Shown: positions 4,229 to 46,631 of the stretch, piece by piece | Position numbering within the stretch: the first letter of the stretch is position 1 | Layout of the letters: each line of letters opens with the position of its first letter | Origin: Kiritimatiellia bacterium | GTDB taxonomy: Bacteria; Verrucomicrobiota; Kiritimatiellia; JAKQHR01 | Assembly (NCBI GenBank): GCA_050178035.1 | Contig: JBFXGK010000001.1 | Span: 128,679 to 192,678 of the forward strand | DNA length: 64,000 nucleotides | Direction: 5' to 3' | Made by a program: the position numbers and the translations under genes | The notes under the pieces: model-generated | Database searches by the model: none | What the model was told of the DNA's origin: nothing | Seen by the model: the letters and a program-made list of their open reading frames with translations, nothing else

Positions 4229-5022
4229 TACCCGTGTGATTCGGTCGGGAACCGGCCCTGCTCGACTTCGTCCTTGTAGCTGGTCAGGGCGCGGGTGATT
4301 TCGGTGCCGAGTTCGGCGTAGCGTTTCACGAAGCGCGGCTGATTCCCATGATAGAGGCCAAGCAAATCGTGCCAGACCAGCACCTGACCATCACACCCGG
4401 GGCCTGCACCGATTCCAATGGTTGGAATATTTATCGAGGCGGTAATTTCTGCCGCCAGTTTCTGCGGAATGCATTCAAGCACCAGCGAAAAAGCTCCGGC
4501 CTCGGCCAGGTCTTTCGCGTCCTGTTTGAGCTGCTCCGCATCTTGTTCTGTTTTGGCCTGAACCCTGAACCCTCCAAAAACATTTACGCTCTGCGGGGTC
4601 AAACCAAGATGGGCCTGCACCGGGATCCCGTTGGCCACCATTCGTTGAACCAGTTCAACGCGCACGGCCCCGCCCTCGACCTTGACGGCATCAGCCCCGG
4701 CTTCTTTTAAAAACCGCCCGGCATTGATCAATGCTTCGTCTTCGGAGCCCTGATAGGAAAGAAAAGGCATGTCCGCCACCACCATGGCCTGTTTCACGGC
4801 TCGCGAAACCGCGCGGGTGTGGTGAAGCATTTCTTCCATGGTGACGGGAAGCGTTGTGTCGTATCCAAGAACAGTCATGCCCAGCGAGTCTCCCACAAGC
4901 ACCAGCGGGATGCCCGCCTCGTCCGCGATCCGGGCGGATGAAAAATCATAGGCCGTGATGCAGGCAATTTTCCGCTGACCCTTCTGGGCCTTGATCGTGA
5001 GCACTGTCCACTGTTTTTTCAT
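4225..5022 (-). CDS. panB: 3-methyl-2-oxobutanoate hydroxymethyltransferase
   Basis: ORF 4225..5073; [24 protein letters not shown] motifs. Start set to ATG at 5022 (MKKQWTVL), just after folK stop. Confidence 0.9.
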
Positions 5023-5023
5023 T

Positions 5024-5527
5024 TTACCAGTCTTCCGAAACAAGCTTGGCATTCCCGGTGTCGCCGAACGCATCCAGCAGTTCTTTCACCGACATTTTTG
5101 CGCCGGGCAATTTCAAGTCGGGGCGGATATCCGCGAGCGGCCGCACCACGAATTCGCGCCTCTGCCAGCGCGGATGAGGGATGGTGAGTTTTTCCTCGTT
5201 GATCACGAGACTGCCGGTGAAGATGATATCAATGTCAATCGTGCGCGGATCGTTCGCATGCTGTCCCCGGCGGCGCCACATGCTGCTTTCGATCTGCTGC
5301 ACGGCGGACAGCCATTCAAACGGGGTTTTCACGCTTTCGAATATCAGAACCGCATTCAGGAATACCATGTCCTTGTAACACTCGCGCACATCCACGGGAC
5401 GGGTTTCATAAAGTCTCGATTTCGCCGCCAGTTCAACATCATCCAGCGCCATGAGCGCCTCCATGGCGCGGTGCAGGGAATCCTGCCGGTTTCCGATGTT
5501 GCTTCCCAGACTGAATCCCGCTTCCAT
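5024..5527 (-). CDS. folK: 2-amino-4-hydroxy-6-hydroxymethyldihydropteridine diphosphokinase
   Basis: ORF 5024..5578; FSLGSNIG...RLYETRPV...IDIDII motifs; start set to ATG at 5527 (MEAGFSLGSN). Confidence 0.85.
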   Translation of the reverse strand: MEAGFSLGSNIGNRQDSLHRAMEALMALDDVELAAKSRLYETRPVDVRECYKDMVFLNAVLIFESVKTPFEWLSAVQQIESSMWRRRGQHANDPRTIDIDIIFTGSLVINEEKLTIPHPRWQRREFVVRPLADIRPDLKLPGAKMSVKELLDAFGDTGNAKLVSEDW

Positions 5528-5531
5528 CGCC

Positions 5532-6038
5532 CTATTTCCCCGCTTTCTTCCCAAGCGCGTAATGCAGCAGGATCTCATCCGTTTTGTAGAGCCGCCTGCA
5601 GGCCTCGCGCGCGATGTTTAAAATCACCATGCCGAATATATCCTTGTCCGTTTTGTAAAGCGAATGGATCGCCTCGCGCGAAAGAATGATCAGTTCCGTG
5701 TCCTCCATCGCCACGGCGGTGGCCGAGTGCGGCTGAATGCCTATCACCGAGGTCTCGCCGAAGCACTGCCCCGTGCCGAATTCAATCAGTTCCATGGTTG
5801 TGCCGTCCACGTCCACCACCATCTTCACACGCCCCGACTGCACAATATAAATGTGGCTGGGCCTGCCGCCCTGCTCAAAAATCATCGTCCCTTCTTTATG
5901 GTGCATCGAACCCAGCAGCGGAAATATCCGATGCAGTTGCTCATCGGTCAGCCCGCCCAGCAGAGAAATCTGGTTGAGGATCGCCATGACGCGGCTCACA
6001 TCCAGCGGGAACTGCCTCTCCTGCTCGGAAAAGCTCAT
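5532..6038 (-). CDS. stand-alone cyclic-nucleotide-binding domain protein (no HTH)
   Basis: C-terminal 168 aa of ORF 5532..6401 from MSFSEQERQ; cNMP-binding fold signature (IYIVQSGRVKM...GQCFGETS...ATAVAMEDTELI). The upstream 121 aa of the ORF overlap dapB in another frame and are rejected. ATG at 6038, 1 nt after dapB stop. Confidence 0.7.
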   Translation of the reverse strand: MSFSEQERQFPLDVSRVMAILNQISLLGGLTDEQLHRIFPLLGSMHHKEGTMIFEQGGRPSHIYIVQSGRVKMVVDVDGTTMELIEFGTGQCFGETSVIGIQPHSATAVAMEDTELIILSREAIHSLYKTDKDIFGMVILNIAREACRRLYKTDEILLHYALGKKAGK

Positions 6039-6039
6039 C

Positions 6040-6843
6040 TTAGAGGCCCAGCACGTCCTGCATGGTATAAAGCCCAGGCTTTCGGCCCGCGACCCACGCA
6101 GCCGCGCGCAGTGCGCCCAAAGCAAAGGTCTCGCGGCTTGTCGCACGATGCGAAAGCTCAAGGCACTCGCCTTCGGCCGCAAACAGCACCGTGTGGTCGC
6201 CGATGATGTCTCCGCCGCGGACAGCGTGTATTCCGATCTGCTCACCCGGACGCTCGCCCACGAGGCCGGAACGCCCGTGAACGGCCACGCGGTTGAGGTC
6301 CCAGCCCAGCCCGTCCGCCGCCGACTTTGCCAGCGTGACCGCCGATCCGCTCGGGGCATCTTTCTTGCGGCGGTGATGCCGCTCGATGATTTCCACATCA
6401 TAGCCCTTGCCTGACAGCGCCTTCGACGCCTGTTTAACCAGGGAGAAGAGCAGATTCATTCCAAGGCTCATGTTGGCCGAAAAAACCACCGGCACCTTTT
6501 TAGCCGCCTCGTGGACCATGCCCTCCTCATCCGCCGACATGCCGGTGGTGCCCACCACCAGTGCAACTCCAGTCTGCGCAGAAATTCTTGCATGCTCGGC
6601 CGTGTTCGTATGGAAACTGAAGTCAATCATCACATCAGAAGCCCTGGCCGCAGCGGCCACGTCCGTCGTGAAAAAAACGCCCAGCTTGCCGGCCGCGCCG
6701 GCATCACTGCCAAGCGCTGTGAAATCGGGCCGCTCGACCGCGGCAGATATAGCGAGATCCTGCACAACCCCTGTTTGCACTGCACGGATCATGGCTTGAC
6801 CCATGCGTCCGCCGGCCCCAATAATCGCGACTTTTTTTGTCAT
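6040..6843 (-). CDS. dapB: 4-hydroxy-tetrahydrodipicolinate reductase
   Basis: 267 aa; N-terminal Rossmann VAIIGAGGRMG, ERHHRRKKDAPSG motif. Confidence 0.9.
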   Translation of the reverse strand: MTKKVAIIGAGGRMGQAMIRAVQTGVVQDLAISAAVERPDFTALGSDAGAAGKLGVFFTTDVAAAARASDVMIDFSFHTNTAEHARISAQTGVALVVGTTGMSADEEGMVHEAAKKVPVVFSANMSLGMNLLFSLVKQASKALSGKGYDVEIIERHHRRKKDAPSGSAVTLAKSAADGLGWDLNRVAVHGRSGLVGERPGEQIGIHAVRGGDIIGDHTVLFAAEGECLELSHRATSRETFALGALRAAAWVAGRKPGLYTMQDVLGL

Positions 6844-6856
6844 GTCTTTTCCTTCC

Positions 6857-7723
6857 TCAAATGAGGTTCACTTCGCGCAGGCAGTCCGCCAGCTTCTTCT
6901 TGAGCGCATCGCTCATCGGGCACAGCGGCAGACGGTAGACCTCCTCGATCCTGCCCATCATCGCAAGCGCGGCCTTCACCGGAATCGGATTGGTGTCCAG
7001 GAACAGGTCGCAGAACAAGCGGTGATACTTCAGATGAATCTTGCGCGCATCTTCCCAGCGTCCCGCCAGCGCATCGGCGACCATCGCGGATACCGGCTCC
7101 GGCGCCACGTTCGTGGCGACGCTGATCACGCCAACTGCGCCGACGACCATCATGGGGAGTGTCAGCGAATCATCGCCCGACAGAATCTCAATGTTGCACA
7201 GCCTGCGGATATGGCTCACGCGGTCCACGCTTCCGCCCGCCTCCTTCACACAGACAATCTGCGGATGCTTTGAAAGCTCGGCAATCGTCTCGACGGCGAT
7301 CTCGCGCGAGGACCGGCCGGGCACATTGTAGAGCACCACCGGCAGGCCGAGGTCGGCCACCGCCGAAAAGTGCGCGATGAGTCCCGCCTGGTTGGGCTTG
7401 TTGTAGTAGGGCGTCACCTGCAGCGTGGCGTCCACGCCCATTTCCTTCACGGCCTCCGTCAGTTCAATGGCCTCGGAAGTGGAGTTGGCGCCCGTGCCGG
7501 CGATGACCTTTGCGCGGCCCTTGCAGCGCATGGCGACGGCGCGAATCACCTCGAGGTGCTCGTTCATCTCCAGCGTAGGCGACTCGCCGGTCGTTCCGAC
7601 CGGAACGATGCCGGTCACCCCGCCTTCAATCTGCATCTCCACCAATGCGTCAAGCCTCTCGTAGTCCACCGACCCGTCCTTGCGGAACGGCGTGACAATC
7701 GCGGTATATGTACCTTCAAACAT
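6857..7723 (-). CDS. dapA: 4-hydroxy-tetrahydrodipicolinate synthase
   Basis: 288 aa; TAIVTPF...GIVPVGTTGE...YNKP motifs. Confidence 0.95.
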   Translation of the reverse strand: MFEGTYTAIVTPFRKDGSVDYERLDALVEMQIEGGVTGIVPVGTTGESPTLEMNEHLEVIRAVAMRCKGRAKVIAGTGANSTSEAIELTEAVKEMGVDATLQVTPYYNKPNQAGLIAHFSAVADLGLPVVLYNVPGRSSREIAVETIAELSKHPQIVCVKEAGGSVDRVSHIRRLCNIEILSGDDSLTLPMMVVGAVGVISVATNVAPEPVSAMVADALAGRWEDARKIHLKYHRLFCDLFLDTNPIPVKAALAMMGRIEEVYRLPLCPMSDALKKKLADCLREVNLI

Positions 7724-7752: not shown

Positions 7753-7829
7753 TTCCAATGATTGGAAGTTTCTTTCTGAAAAGTTCCAACCATTGGAAAA
7801 TCTAAACACGATTCCTCCAATGATTGGAA
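7753..7829. promoter_or_regulatory. array of three 7-1-7 palindromes TTCCAAT-N-ATTGGAA, 31-bp centre spacing, 30-106 bp upstream of dapA start
   Basis: Read directly: TTCCAATGATTGGAA 7753-7767, TTCCAACCATTGGAA 7784-7798, cTCCAATGATTGGAA 7815-7829. Confidence 0.5.
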
Positions 7830-7974: not shown

Positions 7975-9290
7975 GCACATCTGTCCCAGTATTACCGCCA
8001 CAGCATCAACTGGTTAGAAGAGGGAGGTGTTTCTGGGGAGGCGTCTGCCTGCTGAAAAGCCTGTAAAATGGGCACTTTTTCAAATAGCGAGACACTCAAG
8101 ACCTGTAGAATAATGTAGAGTGAAGCTTCTATTTTCAGCCGCTTCTTTATGATGGCGACCAGCAGATATACTGTGATCGCAATCCAGATTTGAGATTTAA
8201 CCGCATTGGGCGAGGTTCCGTAGAATGACTTGATCCGCAGATTCTGCTTGATCCATTTAAAAAATATTTCGATGTTCCAGCGGCCCTTGAAAAGTTCTGC
8301 AACCGTGAGGGGAGGAAGTGAAAAATTATTGGTAAGGAAAACCAGCGTCCGGTTTTCCTGATCACGATACTTGATGCGCCGGAGATGTTCCGGAAAGTAT
8401 CGGGCTGTCTGTGTACCCGTGAGAATGATGGTCTGATCGCAAAGGATGCCGCAGTCTCTATCGGATGGATGGGAGTAGATACGTTGGAACTGAAGATTGG
8501 ATCGGGCCCGTGTAACAAAATAGGCTTTAAGCGAGTGTAGCAGATAAAGGCGTTTGAAATCCAAATAGGCGCGGTCCATTACATAGTAGGCTCCGGGAAC
8601 CGGCAGGATGTGATCCAATACACTGGCATCACCTCGTTTGCCATCTGTAATCAGTATATATTCCGGGATATTGCCGGATAAGTTGAGAAGGGTATGCATC
8701 TTCACGGCCCCTTTGGTCCGGCAGAAATGAGCCCAAGGAAACATCGAAAGACACAGGTCGATCACCGTTGAGTCCAATGCGTATACATCGGCACCCAAAT
8801 CCGGCATCAGCGGATCATCCGCGTATAATCGTCTGGCCTCAGGAATCAGGACGTGAGCAAAATCAGCGTAGATGCGCCAGTCCCGGGTTTCGTTCGCAAC
8901 AGAAAGATTGTTGCGCGAGACGCGACTGTGAATCCCCAAGTGGTACAGCTTGCCGCTCACAGCCCGCAAACAGGATTCGATGTCCCGCAAACTTTCACGG
9001 CAAGTCAACTGAGCAAAGGCCATCACACGGAACTGCTCAGAGCACCGGAACGTCTTCACCTTGTAATCGCCCTGATAGCGATTCACCAACGTCTGAAATC
9101 GCCACCAGGGCAACTGCTGCATCAGCTGAGAAAATACGGTTGTTCCAGAATACATAAGGTTGATCTCCTCCTCCTGATCAACCTTATAGGAAAAACCAAT
9201 TTCAAGTCGGAAAGGATGTAATATCAACACATCCTTATGATGTAACGTGCGTTATAACTATTTTATGCGAAAACGTTGGGACAGATGTGC
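7975..9290 (-). mobile_element. IS element, IS4-family-like, ~1.3 kb, with terminal inverted repeats and flanking direct repeat
   Basis: Perfect 14-bp inverted repeats gcacatctgtccca (7975-7988) and tgggacagatgtgc (9277-9290); flanking direct repeat cattttt at 7968-7974 and 9291-9297 (7-9 bp depending on exact IR end); one DDE transposase ORF inside. Confidence 0.8.
7992..9155 (-). CDS. DDE transposase (IS4 family-like)
   Basis: ORF 7992..9230; start set to ATG at 9155 (MYSGTTVFSQLMQQLP...). Candidate DDE residues in YALDSTVIDL, YVMDRAYLDF, WNIEIFFKWIKQNLRIK. Confidence 0.85.
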   Translation of the reverse strand: MYSGTTVFSQLMQQLPWWRFQTLVNRYQGDYKVKTFRCSEQFRVMAFAQLTCRESLRDIESCLRAVSGKLYHLGIHSRVSRNNLSVANETRDWRIYADFAHVLIPEARRLYADDPLMPDLGADVYALDSTVIDLCLSMFPWAHFCRTKGAVKMHTLLNLSGNIPEYILITDGKRGDASVLDHILPVPGAYYVMDRAYLDFKRLYLLHSLKAYFVTRARSNLQFQRIYSHPSDRDCGILCDQTIILTGTQTARYFPEHLRRIKYRDQENRTLVFLTNNFSLPPLTVAELFKGRWNIEIFFKWIKQNLRIKSFYGTSPNAVKSQIWIAITVYLLVAIIKKRLKIEASLYIILQVLSVSLFEKVPILQAFQQADASPETPPSSNQLMLWR

Positions 9291-9350
9291 CATTTTTGGG
9301 CTTTTTGGGGGCATTTTTGACCATTTTTTGCACTTTTTCGTGGTTTTCAG
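9291..9350. repeat. phased T-tract array, right part (continuation across the IS)
   Basis: catttttgggctttttgggggcatttttgaccattttttgcactttttcgtggttttcag. Confidence 0.5.
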
Positions 9351-9371
9351 GTTGATGTTTTAAGGGCTTAG

Positions 9372-10739
<1,368 letters not shown>

Positions 10740-18703: not shown

Positions 18704-19045
18704 TCACGTCGCCGGCTGGCGAATCATGATCAGCAGCATTTTGAACTGCTTTTCCGCCCAGAGAGAATGCGGAACATTTGCCGGCATGATCACCAATTGC
18801 CCGGCCCGGGCAGTCAGCGGATTTCCGCCGATGTTGATAACCACCTCGCCGTCCAGAATCTGAACAGCCGCATCATACGGTGATGTGTGCTCGCTGAGCC
18901 CCTGCCCCGCATCAAAGGCAAACAGGGTCAATGAGCCCACGTCTTTGTTCATCAGAGTCTTGCTGACGACCGAACCGGAGGCATAGGCGACCTCTTGAAC
19001 AAGTTCAAGGGGCCGCCCTTTGTAGTCTTCGCTGCCCATGATCAC
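18704..19045 (-). CDS. cupin domain protein
   Basis: 113 aa; cupin motifs (GLSEHTSPYDAAVQILDGEV ... PANVPHSL). Confidence 0.65.
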   Translation of the reverse strand: MIMGSEDYKGRPLELVQEVAYASGSVVSKTLMNKDVGSLTLFAFDAGQGLSEHTSPYDAAVQILDGEVVINIGGNPLTARAGQLVIMPANVPHSLWAEKQFKMLLIMIRQPAT

Positions 19046-19410
19046 TCCGCGGGCGCGACAGGCGCTTCCGCCTCAGGGGCCTTTGAAACGCAGCCCGCTT
19101 TTTCCATCATCGGGCATCCGGCCTTGCCTTCAGCCTTCATGCTTTTGCAGCAGGCCATGCAACCAGGCGATCCCGCATGCTTTCCGCACTTCGGGCATAC
19201 CGCGGCGCCTTCTTTGCAGCACAGTTCCGAACCCGCAACCTGGCCGCATTTCCCGCACAGCGCGGGCGCAGCTTCCTCCGATGTCGAAGAGGCCTTCATT
19301 TCTGCTGCCGGTTCAACCGCCGCAGCGGCCTTCGCCGCGCAGCAGGGCCCGGCAAAGGAAACCGATGAAACGGCCAGCACCATTAAAATAACCATTATTC
19401 CGACTTTCAT
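19042..19410 (-). CDS. secreted cysteine-rich small protein (hypothetical, putative metal-binding)
   Basis: ORF 19042..19545; start set to ATG at 19410 (MKVGIMVILMVLAVSSVSFA signal peptide). Mature part has 14 Cys in CC and CxxC arrangements. Confidence 0.5.
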   Translation of the reverse strand: MKVGIMVILMVLAVSSVSFAGPCCAAKAAAAVEPAAEMKASSTSEEAAPALCGKCGQVAGSELCCKEGAAVCPKCGKHAGSPGCMACCKSMKAEGKAGCPMMEKAGCVSKAPEAEAPVAPAE

Positions 19411-19466
19411 AACACTCACCTTTCTTCCCTTGTGGGAATTGAAGTATACGCACCAGGGGCAATAAA

Positions 19467-20249
19467 TCAAATGGCCTTGATCGAAAGAATGTCGCCGGTG
19501 AGACTCATGACCGCTTCTTCCACCACCAAATCCTCCCGCCCGCATCTTTCAGCGGCAGCGCGAACCATCATGGTCAGTCCACCGCAGCAGGGAACCTGCA
19601 TTCTGACGACAATGACTTTGGGGATGGACGGCTCAGCAAATATATCGGCCATTTTTTCCACATAGCCGTCTGTACGATCCAGCTTTGGGCAGGCTACAAC
19701 CAAGCCCCTGCCCCGCAGAAAACGCCAGTGCACGTCAGCCGAGGCGATTGGTCCGCAGGTGCTCATCACCACCAGCTCGCGGTTCTTGAAGAACGGCGCA
19801 CCCGCCTGCACCAGATGCAGCTGCACAGGCCACTGCTGAAGCTCCGACGGAATCGCCGTGGGCATCTGCGCGTGGGTCGCCACCGCCGGCTTTGCGGCGG
19901 GAGCATCCGGCACACGCATGCGTGTGCCGGGACATCCCCCGCCCGACGGGGCCAGGCCATGCTTTTTCCCCGCCTCGTCGAACTTCACAACCGCCGCCGC
20001 GCCCTGAGTCTCCGCCACATGCATGCGCGTGGCATTGAAGTCAAAACCATCCGCCTCGCGCTCTTCAATGGTCAGCGCGCCGGTCCGGCATTCACCGATG
20101 CAGTCTCCGAAACCATCGCAGAACTGCTCCTTGACCAGTTTTGCCTTGCCGTTGACGATCTTCAGCGCGCCCTCTGCGCAGGATGTGACGCATTCGCCGC
20201 ATCCGTTGCAGAGGTCTTCATTGATCCTGATGATCTTGCGCTTTGCCAT
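19467..20249 (-). CDS. 4Fe-4S dicluster domain-containing protein
   Basis: 260 aa; N-terminal CNGCGECVTSCAEGAL and CDGFGDCIGECRTGAL ferredoxin motifs; further Cys pairs C-terminally; directly downstream of hcp. Confidence 0.7.
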   Translation of the reverse strand: MAKRKIIRINEDLCNGCGECVTSCAEGALKIVNGKAKLVKEQFCDGFGDCIGECRTGALTIEEREADGFDFNATRMHVAETQGAAAVVKFDEAGKKHGLAPSGGGCPGTRMRVPDAPAAKPAVATHAQMPTAIPSELQQWPVQLHLVQAGAPFFKNRELVVMSTCGPIASADVHWRFLRGRGLVVACPKLDRTDGYVEKMADIFAEPSIPKVIVVRMQVPCCGGLTMMVRAAAERCGREDLVVEEAVMSLTGDILSIKAI

Positions 20250-20250
20250 A

Positions 20251-21900
20251 TCACTTCCCGGCCATCATGGCCGCGACATCGGCCTGCACTTCGCCAGTCG
20301 GTTTGATGTCGAAGTTCTCAACCAGCACTTTGGCGACAGCGGGCGAAAGGAACGCCGGAAGCGTCGGCCCCAGGCGGATGCCTTTCACCCCCAGATGCAG
20401 CAGCGCCAGCAGCACCGCAACGGCCTTCTGCTCGTACCAGGCGATGTCGAACGAAAGCGGAAGGTCATTGATGGAGGCCAGACCGAACGCCTCCTTCAGC
20501 TTCAGGGCGATGACCGCCAGCGAGTAGCTGTCGTTGCACTGCCCAGCATCCAGCACGCGCGGAATGCCGCCGATGTCGCCGAGGTTCAGCTTGTTGTAAC
20601 GGTACTTCGCGCAGCCCGCGGTCAGGATGATCGTGTCCTTTGGCAGAGCCTCGGCTACTTCTGTGAAGTAGCTGCGGTTTTTGTGACGACCATCGCATCC
20701 GGCCATCACCACAAAGCGCTTGATCGCACCGGACTTGACAGCCTCCACCACCTTGCCGGCCACGGCCATGACCTGATTGTGTGCGAAACCACCGACGATT
20801 TCGCCGTTTTCAATCTCCTGCGGCGGCGGACACTTCTTCGCCTGCTCGATGATCGCGGAGAAATCCTTCTGCTTGCCCGGTTTGCGGTCGGGGATGTGCT
20901 TTGCGCCCGGCCAGCCGGCCATGCCCGTGGTGTAAAAACGGTTGAGATAAGAATCCTTCACCGGAATGATGCAGTTGGTCGTCAGCAGGATCGGCCCGTT
21001 GAACGAGGCGAATTCCTTGTCCTGAAGCCACCAGCTCCCGCCGTAGTTGCCGGCCAGGTGCTTGTATTTCTTGAAGGCCGGATAGTAATGGCACGGAAGC
21101 ATTTCTCCGTGGGTATAGACATCCACCCCCGTGCCCTCTGTCTGCTGCAGCAGTTCGTCCATGTCCTTCAGGTCGTGGCCCGAAATCAGAATGCCCGGAT
21201 TTTTGCGGACGCCGGTGGCAACTTTTGTGATTTCCGGATTGCCATAGGTCTCGGTATTGGCTTTGTCGAGCAGCGCCATGGTCGTTACGGCAATTTCGCC
21301 CGCCTTCAGGACCATGCCCACCATTTGATCAACACTGAGTTTCTGAGTGGTCGAGATCAGACCATCAACCACAAACCGGTAGATGGCGTCATCCTCATAG
21401 CCGAGAACAAGCGCGTGATCAGCGTAGGCCGCGATGCCCTTCAGGCCAATGATCAGAAGCTGCTGGAGCGACCGCACGTCCTCGTTCGGCTCGGACGGGA
21501 TGCCGACCAGAAGCGCCTTGACCTGCAGATCCTCGCCCTTCTTCGGAGCCCATGTCGCCGCGTCGGGCAGACTTTTCGCCCAGGCGGCGTCCTTCTTCTC
21601 GCACTGCTTGCGAATGGCGTCGCGCTGCGCAACAGCCTCATGGATCAGGCGGCTGATGACTGCATCGTCAAAGTTGGCATTGGTGATTGTGGAAAAAAGA
21701 CCGCGGATAATGGTCTGTCCGACTGCGCGGTCATACAGGCCCAGTTCATCGGCTTTCTTGCCGGCAATGGCCAGTCCTTTCAGAGAATGGATCAGAAGAT
21801 CCATCAGATTTGCCGTGGGCTCCTGTTTTCCGCAAACGCCCCGGACGGTGCATCCCTGATTCTTCGCGGTCTCCTGACACTGGAAGCAGAACATACTCAT
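20251..21900 (-). CDS. hcp: hybrid cluster protein / hydroxylamine reductase
   Basis: 549 aa; N-terminal [11 protein letters not shown]...CTVRGVCGK Cys cluster and full-length Hcp architecture. Confidence 0.95.
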
Positions 21901-22370
21901 GATTTTCCCTTTCCTTTTTTTGGTTGTTTATAAATTTCAGCCAGCGTTGTTTTCTCAAAGAAAGCGTTCAGGCGGTTTTGAAGAATGCAGACGGACCCCT
22001 TCATCGGGCATTTCCCGCTGTAGGGACAGGGCTGCCCCTTGCGGTTGCAGACATTCATATAGACCGGCCCCTGCACGGCCTCGACAATCCGTGCGAGGCT
22101 GATCTTCCGGGTCGGAAGGGCCAGCAGATATCCCCCGCGCTTTCCGCGCACGGTTTTCACGACTCCGGCTTTTGCGAGCGTCTGCATGATCTTGCGGAGG
22201 GCGGGCAGCGGCACTTTGCAGTCCTTCGCCAGTTCAAGCGTGTCGGTGCGGGTGCACCGCCGGTCCAGCACATGCAGTGCCCGGAGCGCGTAATCGGTCT
22301 CTCTTCTGAGTATTTCCATAAGCCATCCTTTAAATGCGACCAATTTAGTCCTATTTAACTCCCGCGTCAA
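21897..22370 (-). CDS. Rrf2-family transcriptional regulator (NsrR/IscR-like)
   Basis: 157 aa; [10 protein letters not shown]...GGYLLALP wHTH signature; C-terminal Cys residues; 4-nt overlap with hcp start. Confidence 0.85.
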
Positions 22371-22389
22371 CTAATTATATGAAATTATT

Positions 22390-22761
22390 TCAGGAAGTCT
22401 TTTTCGGCCAGGCCTTGAGGACGGCCATCACCTCTCGGACCCAGGTGCAAACGCACTTGACGGGACATCGGCCGTCCTGACCCAGATGGGAGCAGTAACC
22501 CGGACAGTCCGGTCCCCGGTAGGCACACGTCTGCCACACAGGTCCGTCGTAAAGGTTCCGGAAGTCTTCCACCGCCAGGGCAAGCGTGGTCGTGCATTCG
22601 GTCACATGGTTGAAAAGGAAATATCCCAACCGTTCCTCTTCAAAAAAAGGCTGATAGCCAAGAAATTCGACCGATGGATCTGACAGGAATGAATCCCGGT
22701 CCTTCCATGCCGTGCCGCAGGTCGTGCAGCGCTTGTAGATATGTACGCTCTCTTCTTTCAC
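22390..22761 (-). CDS. cysteine-rich hypothetical protein
   Basis: 123 aa; CTTCG, CAYRGPDCPGYCSH, CPVKCVC motifs; first gene of the hcp operon; no family recognised. Confidence 0.45.
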   Translation of the reverse strand: MKEESVHIYKRCTTCGTAWKDRDSFLSDPSVEFLGYQPFFEEERLGYFLFNHVTECTTTLALAVEDFRNLYDGPVWQTCAYRGPDCPGYCSHLGQDGRCPVKCVCTWVREVMAVLKAWPKKTS

Positions 22762-22854
22762 ATTCCCTCTTGCTCATGACAGTTTATTCGACGATCCCCG
22801 ACAAAGCAAGGGGGTGCTTCAACAATATCCGCGGCCTGCCGCCGGTTCAAAAAG

Positions 22855-22931
22855 TTCCAATCATTGGAAGTATTTCCGGGAAAAGTTCCAACCATTGGAA
22901 GTTTTGTGAAGAAAAGTTCCAATGATTGGAA
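22855..22931. promoter_or_regulatory. array of three 7-1-7 palindromes TTCCAAT-N-ATTGGAA, 31-bp centre spacing, upstream of the Cys-rich/rrf2/hcp operon
   Basis: TTCCAATCATTGGAA 22855-22869, TTCCAACCATTGGAA 22886-22900, TTCCAATGATTGGAA 22917-22931. Confidence 0.55.
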
Positions 22932-22961
22932 AAACCGCACCCTGTCTTTCGCGTGCTGCGT

Positions 22962-24107
22962 TCAGAAGCTGATGTTGCCGCCGCCATCCGTGGCGGTTCC
23001 TGCGATGTTTGTGCTCAAAACGCTGAAGCGGTTGTCAGCATACACGTTGCCGGCTGCTGAAAATACGATGCCGGTGTCAGATCCGGTGATCAGGTTGTTC
23101 TCAATGCAGTTGCGCGCGTTGTTCACATGAATGCCGTTGATCCAATTCCACGACACATTGTTGCCTGCGACATGGCAGGAAAGACTCGCGGAAAGCCCCC
23201 CGCAATCCGGGTCTCTCAGGGAGTTGTTGTTTCCAATGGTGTTGTTGTGCACCGAGCACCCGGTAGAGGCATAAATTCCCCATTCCGCATTGTGCATGCA
23301 AACGTTTTCCCCGATACGGTTGTAATCACCTCCAGAAATTCCATTTTTTGCGTTTTCAGACGCCACATTGCCCTGAATCAAACTCGAATCCCCTGCAACA
23401 ATGCCGGAACTCCCGTTTCCGCATGATGCGTTTCCGGAAACAACGCACCCCTCACCGGCATAGATGCCCCAGTATCCGTTCCCGTACACAATGCACTCTT
23501 CAACCTGCCCGCAGTTCCCTATCTCGATCCCGATTGAGCTGTTGGAAACAACTGTCACACCGTCCAGGATGCAGCCCTCAGTAGGAAAATAGATCCCGAT
23601 GCCTCCGTTGTTTATGATGCGCAGACCAGTCACCCGGTGAGCCCGAGGTTGAGATGAAAGCATAGACTCATAGGCATAAACACCGTTTGCCCCGAACTGG
23701 GCAACCGTTCCGTTGCGTACTTCCACGTTGCGCACGTTTCCGATGTAAATGCCATAGTGTGACACATCCAGCGGATTTCCCGTCAGCGTGAATCCGTTCA
23801 GATCAAGGGCAACATGATCGGCTGAAACAGAGATCCCTCCTTGTGTCACTGTCATGTTGTCTGTCAAATAATAGGATCCGCTGTTGGTGATTGCATAATG
23901 ATAGCCTGAAGAACCCGGCGTGTTGATTGCGCTCAGCGCGGTCCGCGGCTCGGACAGCAGGGTTTGCTGGTGAATTTGATACAGAGTCTTCATTGACGGG
24001 GCGGGCGCGCCCGCCGGCATCAGCAGGCCCTGGGCCAATATGCACTGGGCCCACAGAAGTGCCGACGCAAAAATCATCAGATGTTTCAAGCCAGCCTTCA
24101 TAAGCAT
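22962..24107 (-). CDS. secreted right-handed parallel beta-helix repeat protein
   Basis: ORF 22962..24299; start set to ATG at 24107 (MLMKAGLKHLMIFASALLWAQC signal peptide); Gly/Asn-rich repeats typical of beta-helix (pectate-lyase-like) folds. The N-terminal extension in the track is translation of the T-tract array. Confidence 0.7.
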   Translation of the reverse strand: MLMKAGLKHLMIFASALLWAQCILAQGLLMPAGAPAPSMKTLYQIHQQTLLSEPRTALSAINTPGSSGYHYAITNSGSYYLTDNMTVTQGGISVSADHVALDLNGFTLTGNPLDVSHYGIYIGNVRNVEVRNGTVAQFGANGVYAYESMLSSQPRAHRVTGLRIINNGGIGIYFPTEGCILDGVTVVSNSSIGIEIGNCGQVEECIVYGNGYWGIYAGEGCVVSGNASCGNGSSGIVAGDSSLIQGNVASENAKNGISGGDYNRIGENVCMHNAEWGIYASTGCSVHNNTIGNNNSLRDPDCGGLSASLSCHVAGNNVSWNWINGIHVNNARNCIENNLITGSDTGIVFSAAGNVYADNRFSVLSTNIAGTATDGGGNISF

Positions 24108-24224
24108 CCTCCCTCTTCGGCCTTTGCAGGCTTTTGTTGGAAGAAATGCTATCAAATATTCCGCAGGAAACAATCGAAGAAACGAACCGGTTTGCGCGCT
24201 TCTCGATCTTTTGCGGCGAATTAT

Positions 24225-24315
24225 GAAAAAATTGACGAAATTCGGCCAATTTTGAGCATTTTTAGCCGTTTTTGGCGTGTTTTCGCTAATTTTGGCCATT
24301 TCGATGCTTTTTCAG
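24225..24315. repeat. phased A/T-tract array
   Basis: gaaaaaattgacgaaattcggccaattttgagcatttttagccgtttttggcgtgttttcgctaattttggccatttcgatgctttttcag; T runs every ~10 bp. Confidence 0.5.
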
Positions 24316-24330
24316 GCCCTGCGAAGAACA

Positions 24331-24540
24331 TCATTTGTTACAGCAGGAACCGGCGGATTTCAGACCCATTTTTTTGAAGATCATCTCCGCGGGGCAGAAA
24401 CCCGTAAAGGCGGACTGGATCAAATTGACGCCCACAAAGCAGGCCAGCAACAGCCACCATTGATTCACAAAATGCGCCAGCGCCACACTCACCAGCACAA
24501 GCGTTCCCGCTAGAATACGAATTGCATTTTCAACTGTCAT
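24331..24540 (-). CDS. DUF2892-like small inner-membrane protein (YgaP-like TM domain)
   Basis: 69 aa; two hydrophobic helices and C-terminal FTGFCP motif. Confidence 0.5.
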   Translation of the reverse strand: MTVENAIRILAGTLVLVSVALAHFVNQWWLLLACFVGVNLIQSAFTGFCPAEMIFKKMGLKSAGSCCNK

Positions 24541-44747: not shown

Positions 44748-44793
44748 TTCCAATCATTGGAAGTATTATAACGAATAGTTCCAGGGATTGGAA
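44748..44793. promoter_or_regulatory. two 7-1-7 palindromes, 31-bp centre spacing, 63-108 bp upstream of iorA
   Basis: TTCCAATCATTGGAA 44748-44762; TTCCAGGGATTGGAA 44779-44793 (degenerate left half). Confidence 0.5.
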
Positions 44794-44855: not shown

Positions 44856-46631
44856 TTGCGGCAGGATATGAAACCGACAAAAACACTGATGCTGGGAAAT
44901 GAAGCGATTGCGCGCGGCGCCTGGGAAGCCGGCGTGCGCGTGGCCACGGCCTATCCCGGCACTCCCAGCACCGAAGTCACCGAACACATCGCGCAGTACA
45001 AGGAAATAGATTCCGAGTGGTCGGTGAATGAAAAAGTCGCACTGGAAGTAGCGATTGGCGCTTCCGTGGCCGGCGCGCGCGCAGTCTGCACGATGAAGCA
45101 CGTTGGCCTCAATGTGGCCATGGATCCCCTGCTCTCGATTTCTTATCCCGGCGTCAATGCGGGGCTGGTGGTCGTGGTGGCGGACGACCCCGGACAGCAC
45201 AGTTCCCAGAACGAGCAGGACACCCGCTATTTCGGCATGGCCGGAAAGCTGCCGGTGCTCGAACCGTCCGACAGCCGCGAGTGCCGCGATTTCATGATCC
45301 GCGCGTTTGAAATCAGCGAGAAATTTGACACCCCTGTGATCGTTCGCACAACCACGCGCGTGGCCCACGCCTATGGTCTCGTGGATCATGGCGAGCGCGC
45401 TGACGTTCCGCTGCGCGAGTACGACAGCCGATTCGGGAAATACATGGTCGCGCCCGCATTCTCGCGCAAGCGCCGCGTGGTGGCCGAGGAGCGTCTTGGG
45501 AAACTGCGCGGGTTCGCGGAAACCACCGACTTGAATGTTTATGAGGAAGGCCGGTCTGATACCTGCATCGTCACCGGGAGCATTGCTTATCAGTACTGCA
45601 AGGAAGTCATGCCCGAGGCCGGTTTCTGCAAACTGGGGCTTTCGTATCCCCTGCCCGAAAAGAAGCTGAAAGATTTCTGCAGACGGTACCAGCAGGTTTT
45701 CGTTGTTGAGGAACTGGAACCCATTTTCGAAAACCACCTGAAGACGCTCGGAATCCCAGTGATTGGAAAAGATAAAGTTCCAATCATTGGAGAATTGAGC
45801 ACGGAGATCGTCCGAAAGGCGCTGACCGGGATTGCTCCGAAGCCGGCAGCATCCCAATTTGAAAACCTTCCTGTTCGTCCTCCGGTGCTCTGCCCCGGAT
45901 GCCATCACCGCGGACCGTTCTATGTGATGAAGAAACTCAAGCTGAAAGTGGCCGGCGACATCGGATGCTACACGCTGACCGCCTCGCCGCCGCTGAGCAT
46001 CATGGACACCGCGATCTGCATGGGCGCGGGCATCGGCATGGCCTTCGGCATGCAGAAGGCGCGCGGAAAGGATTTCGCGGGAAAATCTATCGCGGTCATC
46101 GGCGACTCGACCTTCTGGCATTCCGGCATGACCGGCCTCCTGGACATTGTCTATAACCGCGGCATCACCACGGTTGTCATTTTGGACAACAGCATCACCG
46201 CGATGACCGGGCATCAGGAGAATCCATCCAGCGGCAGGACTCTCAGCGGAGAAACCGTGCCTGCGATCAGCTTTGCGGATTTTGCAAAATCCATCGGCAT
46301 CAGGCATGTGCGCGAAGTGGATGCCTTCAACCTGAAGGAACTCGAAACAGTCATGCGCGAGGAACTGGCGCGCGAGGAGCCGTCGGTGATCATCACCAAA
46401 CGCATCTGCATCCTGCACCCGTGTGCGGTCAGGCATTTCCCGCTGAAGGTGAATCCGGATCTCTGCAAGAGCTGCATGAAATGCCTTTCGATCGGATGCC
46501 CCGCCATTTCCTTCGACGGCGACAAGGTGAAGATTGATCAGGTGCTTTGCGTGGGATGCGAACTGTGCGCGGGCATATGCCCGTTCCATGCGATTGAAAA
46601 GCAGCCCAAACCCGACGGAGGCGAATCTTGA
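44856..46631 (+). CDS. iorA: indolepyruvate ferredoxin oxidoreductase subunit alpha
   Basis: 591 aa; TPP-binding and 4Fe-4S ferredoxin motifs (CKSCMKC...CPAISF, CVGCELCAGICP). Confidence 0.95.
   Translation: MRQDMKPTKTLMLGNEAIARGAWEAGVRVATAYPGTPSTEVTEHIAQYKEIDSEWSVNEKVALEVAIGASVAGARAVCTMKHVGLNVAMDPLLSISYPGVNAGLVVVVADDPGQHSSQNEQDTRYFGMAGKLPVLEPSDSRECRDFMIRAFEISEKFDTPVIVRTTTRVAHAYGLVDHGERADVPLREYDSRFGKYMVAPAFSRKRRVVAEERLGKLRGFAETTDLNVYEEGRSDTCIVTGSIAYQYCKEVMPEAGFCKLGLSYPLPEKKLKDFCRRYQQVFVVEELEPIFENHLKTLGIPVIGKDKVPIIGELSTEIVRKALTGIAPKPAASQFENLPVRPPVLCPGCHHRGPFYVMKKLKLKVAGDIGCYTLTASPPLSIMDTAICMGAGIGMAFGMQKARGKDFAGKSIAVIGDSTFWHSGMTGLLDIVYNRGITTVVILDNSITAMTGHQENPSSGRTLSGETVPAISFADFAKSIGIRHVREVDAFNLKELETVMREELAREEPSVIITKRICILHPCAVRHFPLKVNPDLCKSCMKCLSIGCPAISFDGDKVKIDQVLCVGCELCAGICPFHAIEKQPKPDGGES

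Follow-up and report, generated by a model that had tools for sequence, protein, structure and literature searches.

A cysteine-rich gene beside the rrf2-hcp cluster of a Kiritimatiellia bacterium represents a widespread family of putative metal-binding proteins

We describe here a small gene, called X, in a 64,000-nucleotide stretch of Kiritimatiellia bacterium DNA (assembly GCA_050178035.1, contig JBFXGK010000001.1, positions 128,679 to 192,678; hereafter the window), whose Cys-rich product is the single-domain prototype of an undescribed family that is widespread in mostly anaerobic bacteria. X lies upstream of genes for an Rrf2-family regulator, a hybrid cluster protein (Hcp) and a ferredoxin-like protein, and a first-pass annotation of this DNA had taken it for the first gene of the hcp operon and possibly an Fe-S or Zn sensor, or a partner protein for Hcp or Rrf2. 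The reading that we favour, tentatively and at a little under an even chance, is that X is a module with two metal sites (Zn and/or Fe-S) that responds to redox state, nitric oxide (NO) or metal through protein contacts, either alone or attached to kinases, and that was recruited in one Kiritimatiellia clade beside the Rrf2-controlled hcp cluster.

An undescribed protein family

X occupies positions 22390 to 22761 on the minus strand, with a GTG start and a TGA stop, and encodes an acidic, cytoplasmic protein of 123 residues (14 kDa, pI 5.9) that is identical to MGD9872766.1, 'hypothetical protein AB7T27_00715 [Kiritimatiellia bacterium]'. A Shine-Dalgarno sequence, GAGGG (22765 to 22769, minus strand), read from the sequence and aligned with the orthologues, is positioned 3 nt 5' of the GTG; the orthologue at locus L003 has AGAGGAAA ahead of its own GTG, and the GTG start is kept by all of the orthologues compared. 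A length of 123 residues is by itself unremarkable in DNA of 55–60% GC, and the window's list of open reading frames (ORFs) contains many spurious ones. Our judgement that X is a genuine gene, under purifying selection, is based instead on its homologues, its sequence clusters and its low dN/dS. Orthologues are 72–80% identical, a further 42 homologues lie beyond the clade of X at E values down to 1e-33, homologues at 38–50% identity having E values from 1e-20 to 1e-33, and dN/dS against three orthologues is 0.08–0.19, with dS near 1. This conservation across genomes, together with the dN/dS values, excludes a spurious ORF, and the Cys-rich 123-residue frame of the first-pass annotation stands, on the minus strand.

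The family is large. A profile search with the X family yields 1,374 clusters at 90% identity, all of them unnamed or 'hypothetical' and lacking a Pfam domain, and an exhaustive HMMER scan with X yields 538 clusters at 50% identity, 301 of these at E <1e-10. It is encoded by 258 species-representative genomes, with hosts that are mostly anaerobes in the Desulfobacterota, Kiritimatiellota/Lentisphaerota/Verrucomicrobiota, Planctomycetota, Cloacimonadota, Calditrichota, Spirochaetota and Omnitrophota, and also in the Hydrogenedentota. Some genomes have two copies at one locus, as in L016, a Calditrichota metagenome-assembled genome with a tandem pair (4980-5986), and in L026 (4875-5342 and 9706-10140). 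Conservation in related genomes was specifically looked for and extends widely across phyla.

The library searches agree with the earlier description of X as unassigned. X matches no family of Pfam-A, NCBIfam, PADLOC or PHROGs at E <= 1. The first two libraries were compared with X alone and the other two with X and three distant homologues, where a single chance-level match to PHROG P0018 (E = 0.28) was the only one. The precomputed Pfam annotation is empty ('-') for all of the approximately 160 X homologues listed, a sequence-profile search of the PDB found nothing, and literature searches on the CPGYC motif and on Cys-rich genes within hcp/Rrf2 operons gave no relevant result. With at least 1,374 clusters at 90% identity in at least eight phyla, and with a place in no library searched nor in the PDB, the family is a clean candidate for a new domain definition. 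We note that small Cys-rich putative metalloproteins are, as a general kind, familiar from anaerobes.

Conserved residues and predicted structure

Conservation was computed over 268 full-length domains, and ten positions of X are conserved in at least 95% of them: C12, C15, W19, D28, H52, C56, C86, C90, C99 and C103. Eight of these (all except W19 and D28) are ligand-type residues, and C105, at 82%, is a less strict putative ligand. The family signature, C-x2-C-x36-H-x(1-4)-C-x29-C-x3-C-x8-C-x3-C-(x-C), has nearly fixed spacing, with the two CX3C spacings kept in 253 of 255 and 262 of 266 sequences, and invariant positions other than Cys are also present (W19, D28, G35, Y36, G46, F50 and R109). 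All three Cys motifs singled out in the first-pass annotation are found in X, namely CTTCG (residues 12-16), CAYRGPDCPGYCSH (79-92) and CPVKCVC (99-105), and most of the Cys residues in them are conserved; C79, the first Cys of CAYRG, is restricted to the close clade and is replaced by Arg in 60% of the family.

An AlphaFold model of X, built from 131 sequences (pLDDT 82, pTM 0.77) and in agreement with a run using a shallower alignment, has an ordered alpha/beta fold, and its pLDDT exceeds 90 at residues 10-70 and 105-116. The CxxC pair C12/C15 is located in a hairpin turn between strands 10-11 and 18-19, and H52/C56 is in the turn linking strands 47-52 and 58-63. A helix at 64-70 is followed by a long loop, 71-103, that bears the CX3C-x8-CX3C cysteines and has the lowest confidence (pLDDT 64–71), as might be expected for a loop whose order depends on metal, and then by a confidently predicted C-terminal helix (104-116) that contains a conserved Arg.

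Since the protein is Cys-rich and its eight ligand-type residues are so strongly conserved, a metal-binding role is plausible, and to this extent the suggestion of an Fe-S or Zn protein holds up; the suggestion of a partner for Hcp or Rrf2, which is not supported as stated, is discussed below. From the sequence pattern and the placement of the residues on the predicted secondary structure we infer that the ligands pair into two sites. C12/C15 and H52/C56 would form a zinc-ribbon-like CCHC site stapling the three-stranded sheet. C86, C90, C99 and C103 (together with C105) would make up the other, a Zn(Cys)4 site or an Fe-S cluster, with the loop packed on the C-terminal helix.

Fusions and gene contexts across the family

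In at least four clusters at 50% identity the X domain is found at the extreme C-terminus of an FHA-GAF-HisKA-HATPase_c histidine kinase of about 650 residues, and in one protein it is fused to an acyl-ACP thioesterase. A Candidatus Hydrogenedentota locus (L093) encodes two paralogous kinases of this FHA-GAF-HisKA-HATPase_c-X type (5001-6968 and 8595-10580), spaced 1.6 kb apart and with no response regulator adjacent to the pair, and in L006 a PAS hybrid kinase gene is followed, 65 nt on, by a stand-alone X. ORFs of L012, L029 and L060 that looked like long fusions were discarded as over-extended high-GC ORFs without Pfam domains.

We gathered 93 X-family loci and compared their neighbours by all-against-all clustering and Pfam. 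No partner gene is common across phyla among the 93, and the recurrent arrangements are lineage-specific. X is followed by a 253-residue DDAH/ADI-superfamily gene at 12–20 loci in Desulfobacterales, with varying outer flanks; isochorismatase, X and LysE genes are consecutive at about nine loci; X is inserted between gatC and gatA, in the Glu-tRNA(Gln) amidotransferase operon, at five to seven loci of Desulfatitalea-type genomes (among L018, L036, L039, L077, L078, L081 and L085); and it follows the MetRS gene at five loci of Lentisphaerae-type genomes. In the nearest relatives outside the clade of X, which belong to the Planctomycetes-Verrucomicrobia-Chlamydiae (PVC) group (Verrucomicrobiota/Kiritimatiellota), the order is ferritin, X and a DsbD that is a full-length thiol:disulfide interchange protein. 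The genes of this arrangement are separated by gaps of about 20 nt, and no more than 22, in L017, L021 and L056 (about 4350-7080), and it occurs also in L042. Genes of ZIP and thioredoxin type, an arginase, a helix-turn-helix (HTH) gene and others are neighbours in single cases.

We infer a signalling role from the kinase fusions and the kinase neighbour in L006, and a link to redox or metals from the ferritin, DsbD, ZIP and thioredoxin-type neighbours; the ferritin-X-DsbD arrangement in particular hints at a connection with iron and thiol redox homeostasis. On the favoured reading the X domain would respond to redox state, NO or metal and work through contacts between proteins, whether standing alone or attached to a kinase.

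The same contexts could be explained if X were a small general-purpose electron carrier or thiol-disulfide redox protein, with a rubredoxin-, ferredoxin- or thioredoxin-like role, that serves whichever enzyme is adjacent (Hcp and FrdX in the window, DsbD in other PVC bacteria). The gene contexts of X are highly variable, as are those of rubredoxin and ferredoxin genes, its hosts are mostly anaerobes, the ferritin-X-DsbD arrangement is operon-like, the CPGYC motif superficially recalls the CPYC and CGPC redox motifs, and the hcp cluster in relatives also includes a rubredoxin gene. However, X resembles no known carrier fold and has CX3C rather than CX2C spacing, many of its neighbours (DDAH, LysE, GatCA and MetRS) need no electron donor, and a C-terminal fusion to histidine kinases suits a regulatory module better than a diffusible carrier. 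We regard this explanation as unlikely.

A second explanation takes the commonest neighbours at face value. The DDAH/ADI enzymes, isochorismatase-type hydrolases, LysE exporters, GatC/GatA and MetRS, with the single arginase, would be expected if X were a protein with two zincs of purely structural function and a role in translation or in the metabolism of amino acids or amides, and its position near hcp would then be incidental; the palindrome array upstream of X, described below, is also found ahead of dapA and of an indolepyruvate-oxidoreductase-like gene. Yet each of these contexts belongs to a single lineage and could be a matter of descent, no context recurs across phyla, and the kinase fusions and the ferritin, DsbD and hcp contexts do not fit. 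We consider a purely structural role to be quite improbable.

Linkage to the hcp cluster

The three genes downstream of X in the window are tightly coupled on the minus strand. The rrf2 gene (21897 to 22319, start ATG at 22319) encodes an Rrf2-family regulator (PF02082, E = 1.8e-27) with a C-x6-C-x5-C-x6-C motif, and its stop codon overlaps the start of hcp by 4 nt (ATGA). The hcp gene (20251 to 21900; hybrid cluster protein/hydroxylamine reductase, NF003658, E = 3e-250) is followed after 1 nt by a ferredoxin-like gene of frdX type (19467 to 20249) with a 2x[4Fe-4S] and an AF_0155 domain. X is on the same strand, with 70 nt between it and rrf2.

This neighbourhood is confined to a clade in which X is at least 72% identical, comprising the window, L002-L004, L011, L091 and L092, where hcp, rrf2 and the ferredoxin-like gene accompany X. 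Among 85 non-redundant loci, the approximately 80 that fall outside the clade and belong to several phyla have neither hcp nor rrf2 within 5 kb of X. Within the clade, the order X, rrf2, hcp, ferredoxin-like gene, unknown gene and cupin is held throughout, as far as each locus reaches (L091 stops within hcp), and a rubredoxin gene follows the cupin in L002-L004 and L092. The gene 5' of X varies, being a NosD-like beta-helix gene in the window, a YgaP-like membrane protein gene in L003, a gene for a 154-residue unknown protein in L091 and a peptidase M3 gene in L092. In this close Kiritimatiellia clade X therefore travels with the hcp cluster, with the linkage kept despite the differing upstream genes. 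The neighbourhood conservation put forward in the first-pass annotation is accordingly seen in every member of the close clade and at no other locus of the family.

X is not a universal partner of Hcp or Rrf2, and because only one lineage places it beside NO-stress genes it is not a dedicated partner of these; the distribution excludes a partnership across the family. A lineage-specific recruitment to the cluster is possible. In the Kiritimatiellia clade the X gene would have been recruited to the head of an Rrf2-controlled hcp-ferredoxin nitrosative-stress cluster, and it probably contributes to the stress response of that cluster from a promoter of its own, with a different operator array upstream.

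Identities across the syntenic block, between the window and L003, L011 and L092, are 93% for Hcp, 87–90% for the ferredoxin-like protein, 90–91% for the cupin, 74% for Rrf2 and 72–78% for X, and evolutionary rates are thus highly unequal within the single X-rrf2-hcp block (20251-22761). No compositional break was found around the X-hcp cluster, and a foreign island was rejected on this basis. The NosD-like gene encodes a right-handed beta-helix protein of 445 residues and lies at 22962-24299 (minus strand), flanked by the palindrome array on one side and the YgaP-like gene (24331-24540) on the other; it is missing from L003 and replaced by other genes in L091 and L092, so that the upstream boundary of X-rrf2-hcp is a rearrangement hotspot. 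At the other end, between the ferredoxin-like gene and the cupin, is a Cys-rich ORF (19042-19545, minus strand). Its start (MKVGIMVILMVLAVSSVSFA...) resembles a signal peptide, and CxxC/CC motifs recur in it. It matches no Pfam or NCBIfam family, and tblastn finds a homologue in L092 only (59%), the 95-residue gene at the same place in L003 being unmatched.

Control regions of X and rrf2

Comparison of this region of the window with its orthologues in L003, L091 and L092, in an alignment of all four, points to separate control of X and rrf2. A sigma-70-like promoter candidate for X (22781 to 22809, minus strand) is composed of TTGCTT (22809-22804) and TAAACT (22786-22781) spaced by 17 nt. It is conserved in L092, and appears as TTGCTT-N17-TAGATT in L091 and TTGCAA-N17-TAGATT in L003; the conserved TTGCTT-N17-TA(A/G)A(C/T)T ends approximately 20 nt before the GTG. 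The candidate is below the threshold of a promoter consensus scan, and was recognised by reading the alignment. We also considered a sigma-54 promoter, for which CTTGCT could supply the -12 element, and rejected it because all four regions lack the GG at -24 and have a spacing that is wrong by one. A riboswitch or other noncoding RNA in the leader was likewise rejected, the only Rfam match being at chance level (E = 0.72; 18.8 bits, where the gathering score is 45).

The 70-nt spacer between X and rrf2 (22320 to 22389, minus strand) contains a second promoter-like element, TTGACG-N17-TAAATT (22370-22342), which the consensus scan does report, and a palindrome, ATAGGACTAAATTGGTCGCAT (22354-22334), that covers its -10 region. 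GTTGAC and TAAATAG(G/T)ACTA are invariant in the four aligned regions. The palindrome is perfect in L091 (ATAGGACTATTTTAGTCCTAT) and L003 (ATAGTACTATTTTAGTACTAT), and its second arm matches at six of nine positions in the window. Its core, GACTAwwwTAGTC, matches that of the IscR type-1 consensus, ATASYYGACTRWWWYAGTCRRSTAT (quoted in PMC3899308). As this conserved palindrome overlaps the -10 region and has an IscR type-1 core, Rrf2 probably autoregulates rrf2, hcp and the ferredoxin-like gene from it. Control of hcp by Rrf2/NsrR and the existence of hcp-frdX operons are known from comparative genomics (PMC1274295), and an autoregulated rrf2-hcp-ferredoxin design agrees with these.

Because the spacer holds a conserved promoter-like element overlapped by a conserved palindrome, rrf2-hcp would have its own start and a putative operator, with X transcribed from its own promoter. 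No terminator is predicted after X, and for this reason read-through into rrf2 is possible. The description of X as the first gene of the hcp operon is therefore replaced by a picture in which rrf2-hcp-ferredoxin is self-contained, with X upstream as a gene under separate control.

These observations bear directly on the view that X serves Hcp or Rrf2 specifically, as an accessory, a sensor or a partner in maturation, and is the first cistron of the hcp operon. The shared strand, the short gap, the lack of a predicted terminator and a gene order that is kept although the upstream gene differs are all in its favour. Against it are the many loci of the family that lack hcp and rrf2, the promoter-like element and putative operator between X and rrf2, and the description of hcp operons elsewhere with hcr or frdX and with no gene like X (PMC1274295). 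Moreover, Rrf2 bears its own Cys motif and thus needs no separate sensor. We think a dedicated partnership very unlikely.

The upstream palindrome array

Three 31-nt units, each with the 15 bp palindrome TTCCAATnATTGGAA, form an array at 22850 to 22942 (palindromes at 22855-22869, 22886-22900 and 22917-22931; a strand does not apply). The array is situated approximately 95–170 nt 5' of the GTG of X and upstream of the candidate -35, and X is indeed placed, as first described, directly downstream of the array (by about 95 nt) and upstream of the Rrf2 gene. It accompanies X in L003 and L011, with three copies each, and in L092, with two copies behind a different upstream gene, the first copy overlapping the stop codon of that unrelated gene. 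At L091, where X is 80% identical, different repeats are found at the array position, and the array is present at no X-family locus outside the close clade.

The 15-mer is also dispersed, with 11 matches in the window at two or fewer mismatches against 0.33 expected. A second array of three copies with the same 31-nt phasing (7753-7829) lies 30 nt upstream of dapA (6857 to 7723), and a two-copy array (44748-44793) is upstream of an indolepyruvate-oxidoreductase-like gene (about 44870). Two more matches fall inside this last gene (45754-45792), where they code for PVIG/PIIG, and a further single match is at 4413-4427. Adjoining the dapA array is an IS4-type DDE transposase gene (DUF4372 + DDE_Tnp_1; 7992-9230, minus strand).

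Because the downstream genes are functionally unrelated, the array is either the site of a global regulator or a dispersed repeat resembling repetitive extragenic palindromic (REP) elements, and it gives no evidence that X belongs to a nitrosative-stress regulon. Phasing by three helical turns (31 nt) resembles Lrp-type wrapping; a search of the window with an E. coli Lrp sequence gave no homologue.

X itself might be supposed to recognise the array as a zinc-finger DNA-binding regulator, as the array is immediately upstream of the gene and moves together with it, and as the N-terminus of X resembles a zinc ribbon and its C-terminal helix bears a conserved Arg. However, the family is acidic (median pI 5.4), which disfavours a role in binding nucleic acid, X has neither an HTH nor a known DNA-binding fold, and the array differs in L091 and is missing from all family loci outside the close clade. 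The acidity and this absence lead us to reject X as the binder of the TTCCAATnATTGGAA palindromes, a role that we regard as extremely improbable.

Discussion

Several considerations weigh against the two-site, protein-contact module that we favour. Most contexts of X (DDAH/ADI, isochorismatase with LysE, gatC-X-gatA and MetRS) are not obviously redox-related, and could signify amino-acid or amide metabolism or mere inherited synteny. The synteny of X with hcp, found within one clade in which Hcp is 93% identical, could similarly reflect inheritance and not function. The assignment of two sites is a prediction from sequence pattern and secondary-structure placement, and CX3C pairs are not a classical Fe-S motif. 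The metal, redox and binding properties proposed for X are predictions from its sequence and model.

A more specific proposal is that the X domain is an unrecognised Fe-S or zinc-thiolate sensor with a new fold, conveying an NO, redox or metal signal in cis to an FHA-GAF kinase core and in trans when it stands alone, and here modulating the Rrf2/Hcp response. This seems to us rather improbable as stated. The eight invariant Cys/His residues, the anaerobic hosts, the kinase fusions and the hcp, ferritin and DsbD neighbours make X a candidate, open to test, for a new metal-based module that responds to redox state or NO.

X shares features with several known types of protein. The described companions of Hcp are Hcr, an NADH oxidoreductase, and FrdX, a ferredoxin-like protein, under NsrR/HcpR/NorR control (PMC1274295). 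X is likewise on the same strand and next to hcp in a regulator-controlled cluster. However, it is unrelated to either companion, the FrdX-type partner in the window being the gene at 19467-20249, and it is located upstream of the regulator, past the regulator's own promoter and operator, and with hcp in one clade only. X is also a poor fit as a component of an Hcp operon in that it shows no co-occurrence with hcp across lineages and is split from rrf2 by the conserved promoter-like element and candidate operator.

Zinc-ribbon and rubredoxin-knuckle sites resemble the predicted structure of X in having a CxxC in a beta-hairpin turn and a second ligand pair (H-x1-4-C in X) in the next hairpin turn, within a small domain with invariant Cys; the hosts of X are mostly anaerobes. 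X departs from these in that its second knuckle is an H...C pair of variable spacing and not CxxC, in the added CX3C-x8-CX3C(xC) loop, and in a fold that matches no solved structure, and it has no Pfam match of either kind at E <= 1. The rubredoxin motif (C-x2-C-G ... C-P-x-C-G) is missing from X, which has no match to PF00301, and neither the C-x2-C-x2-C-x3-C-P motif of 2x[4Fe-4S]/[4Fe-4S] ferredoxins nor a Fer4 match is found in it, both being present in the neighbouring gene at 19467-20249. Nor does X look like a metallothionein-like Cys-rich peptide, given the ordered alpha/beta fold of its model and its many invariant positions other than Cys.

Finally, the WhiB-like proteins, the cluster site of Rrf2/NsrR and the ZAS anti-sigma factors (RsrA) differ from X in having no sequence or fold similarity to it, and their motifs (C-x14-22-C-x2-C-x5-C, C-x5-C-x5-C and H-x3-C-x2-C) are all missing from X. 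Like X, however, they are small Cys-rich cytoplasmic modules that are encoded at stress loci or joined to signalling proteins; their action is by contact with other proteins, as we propose for the X domain.
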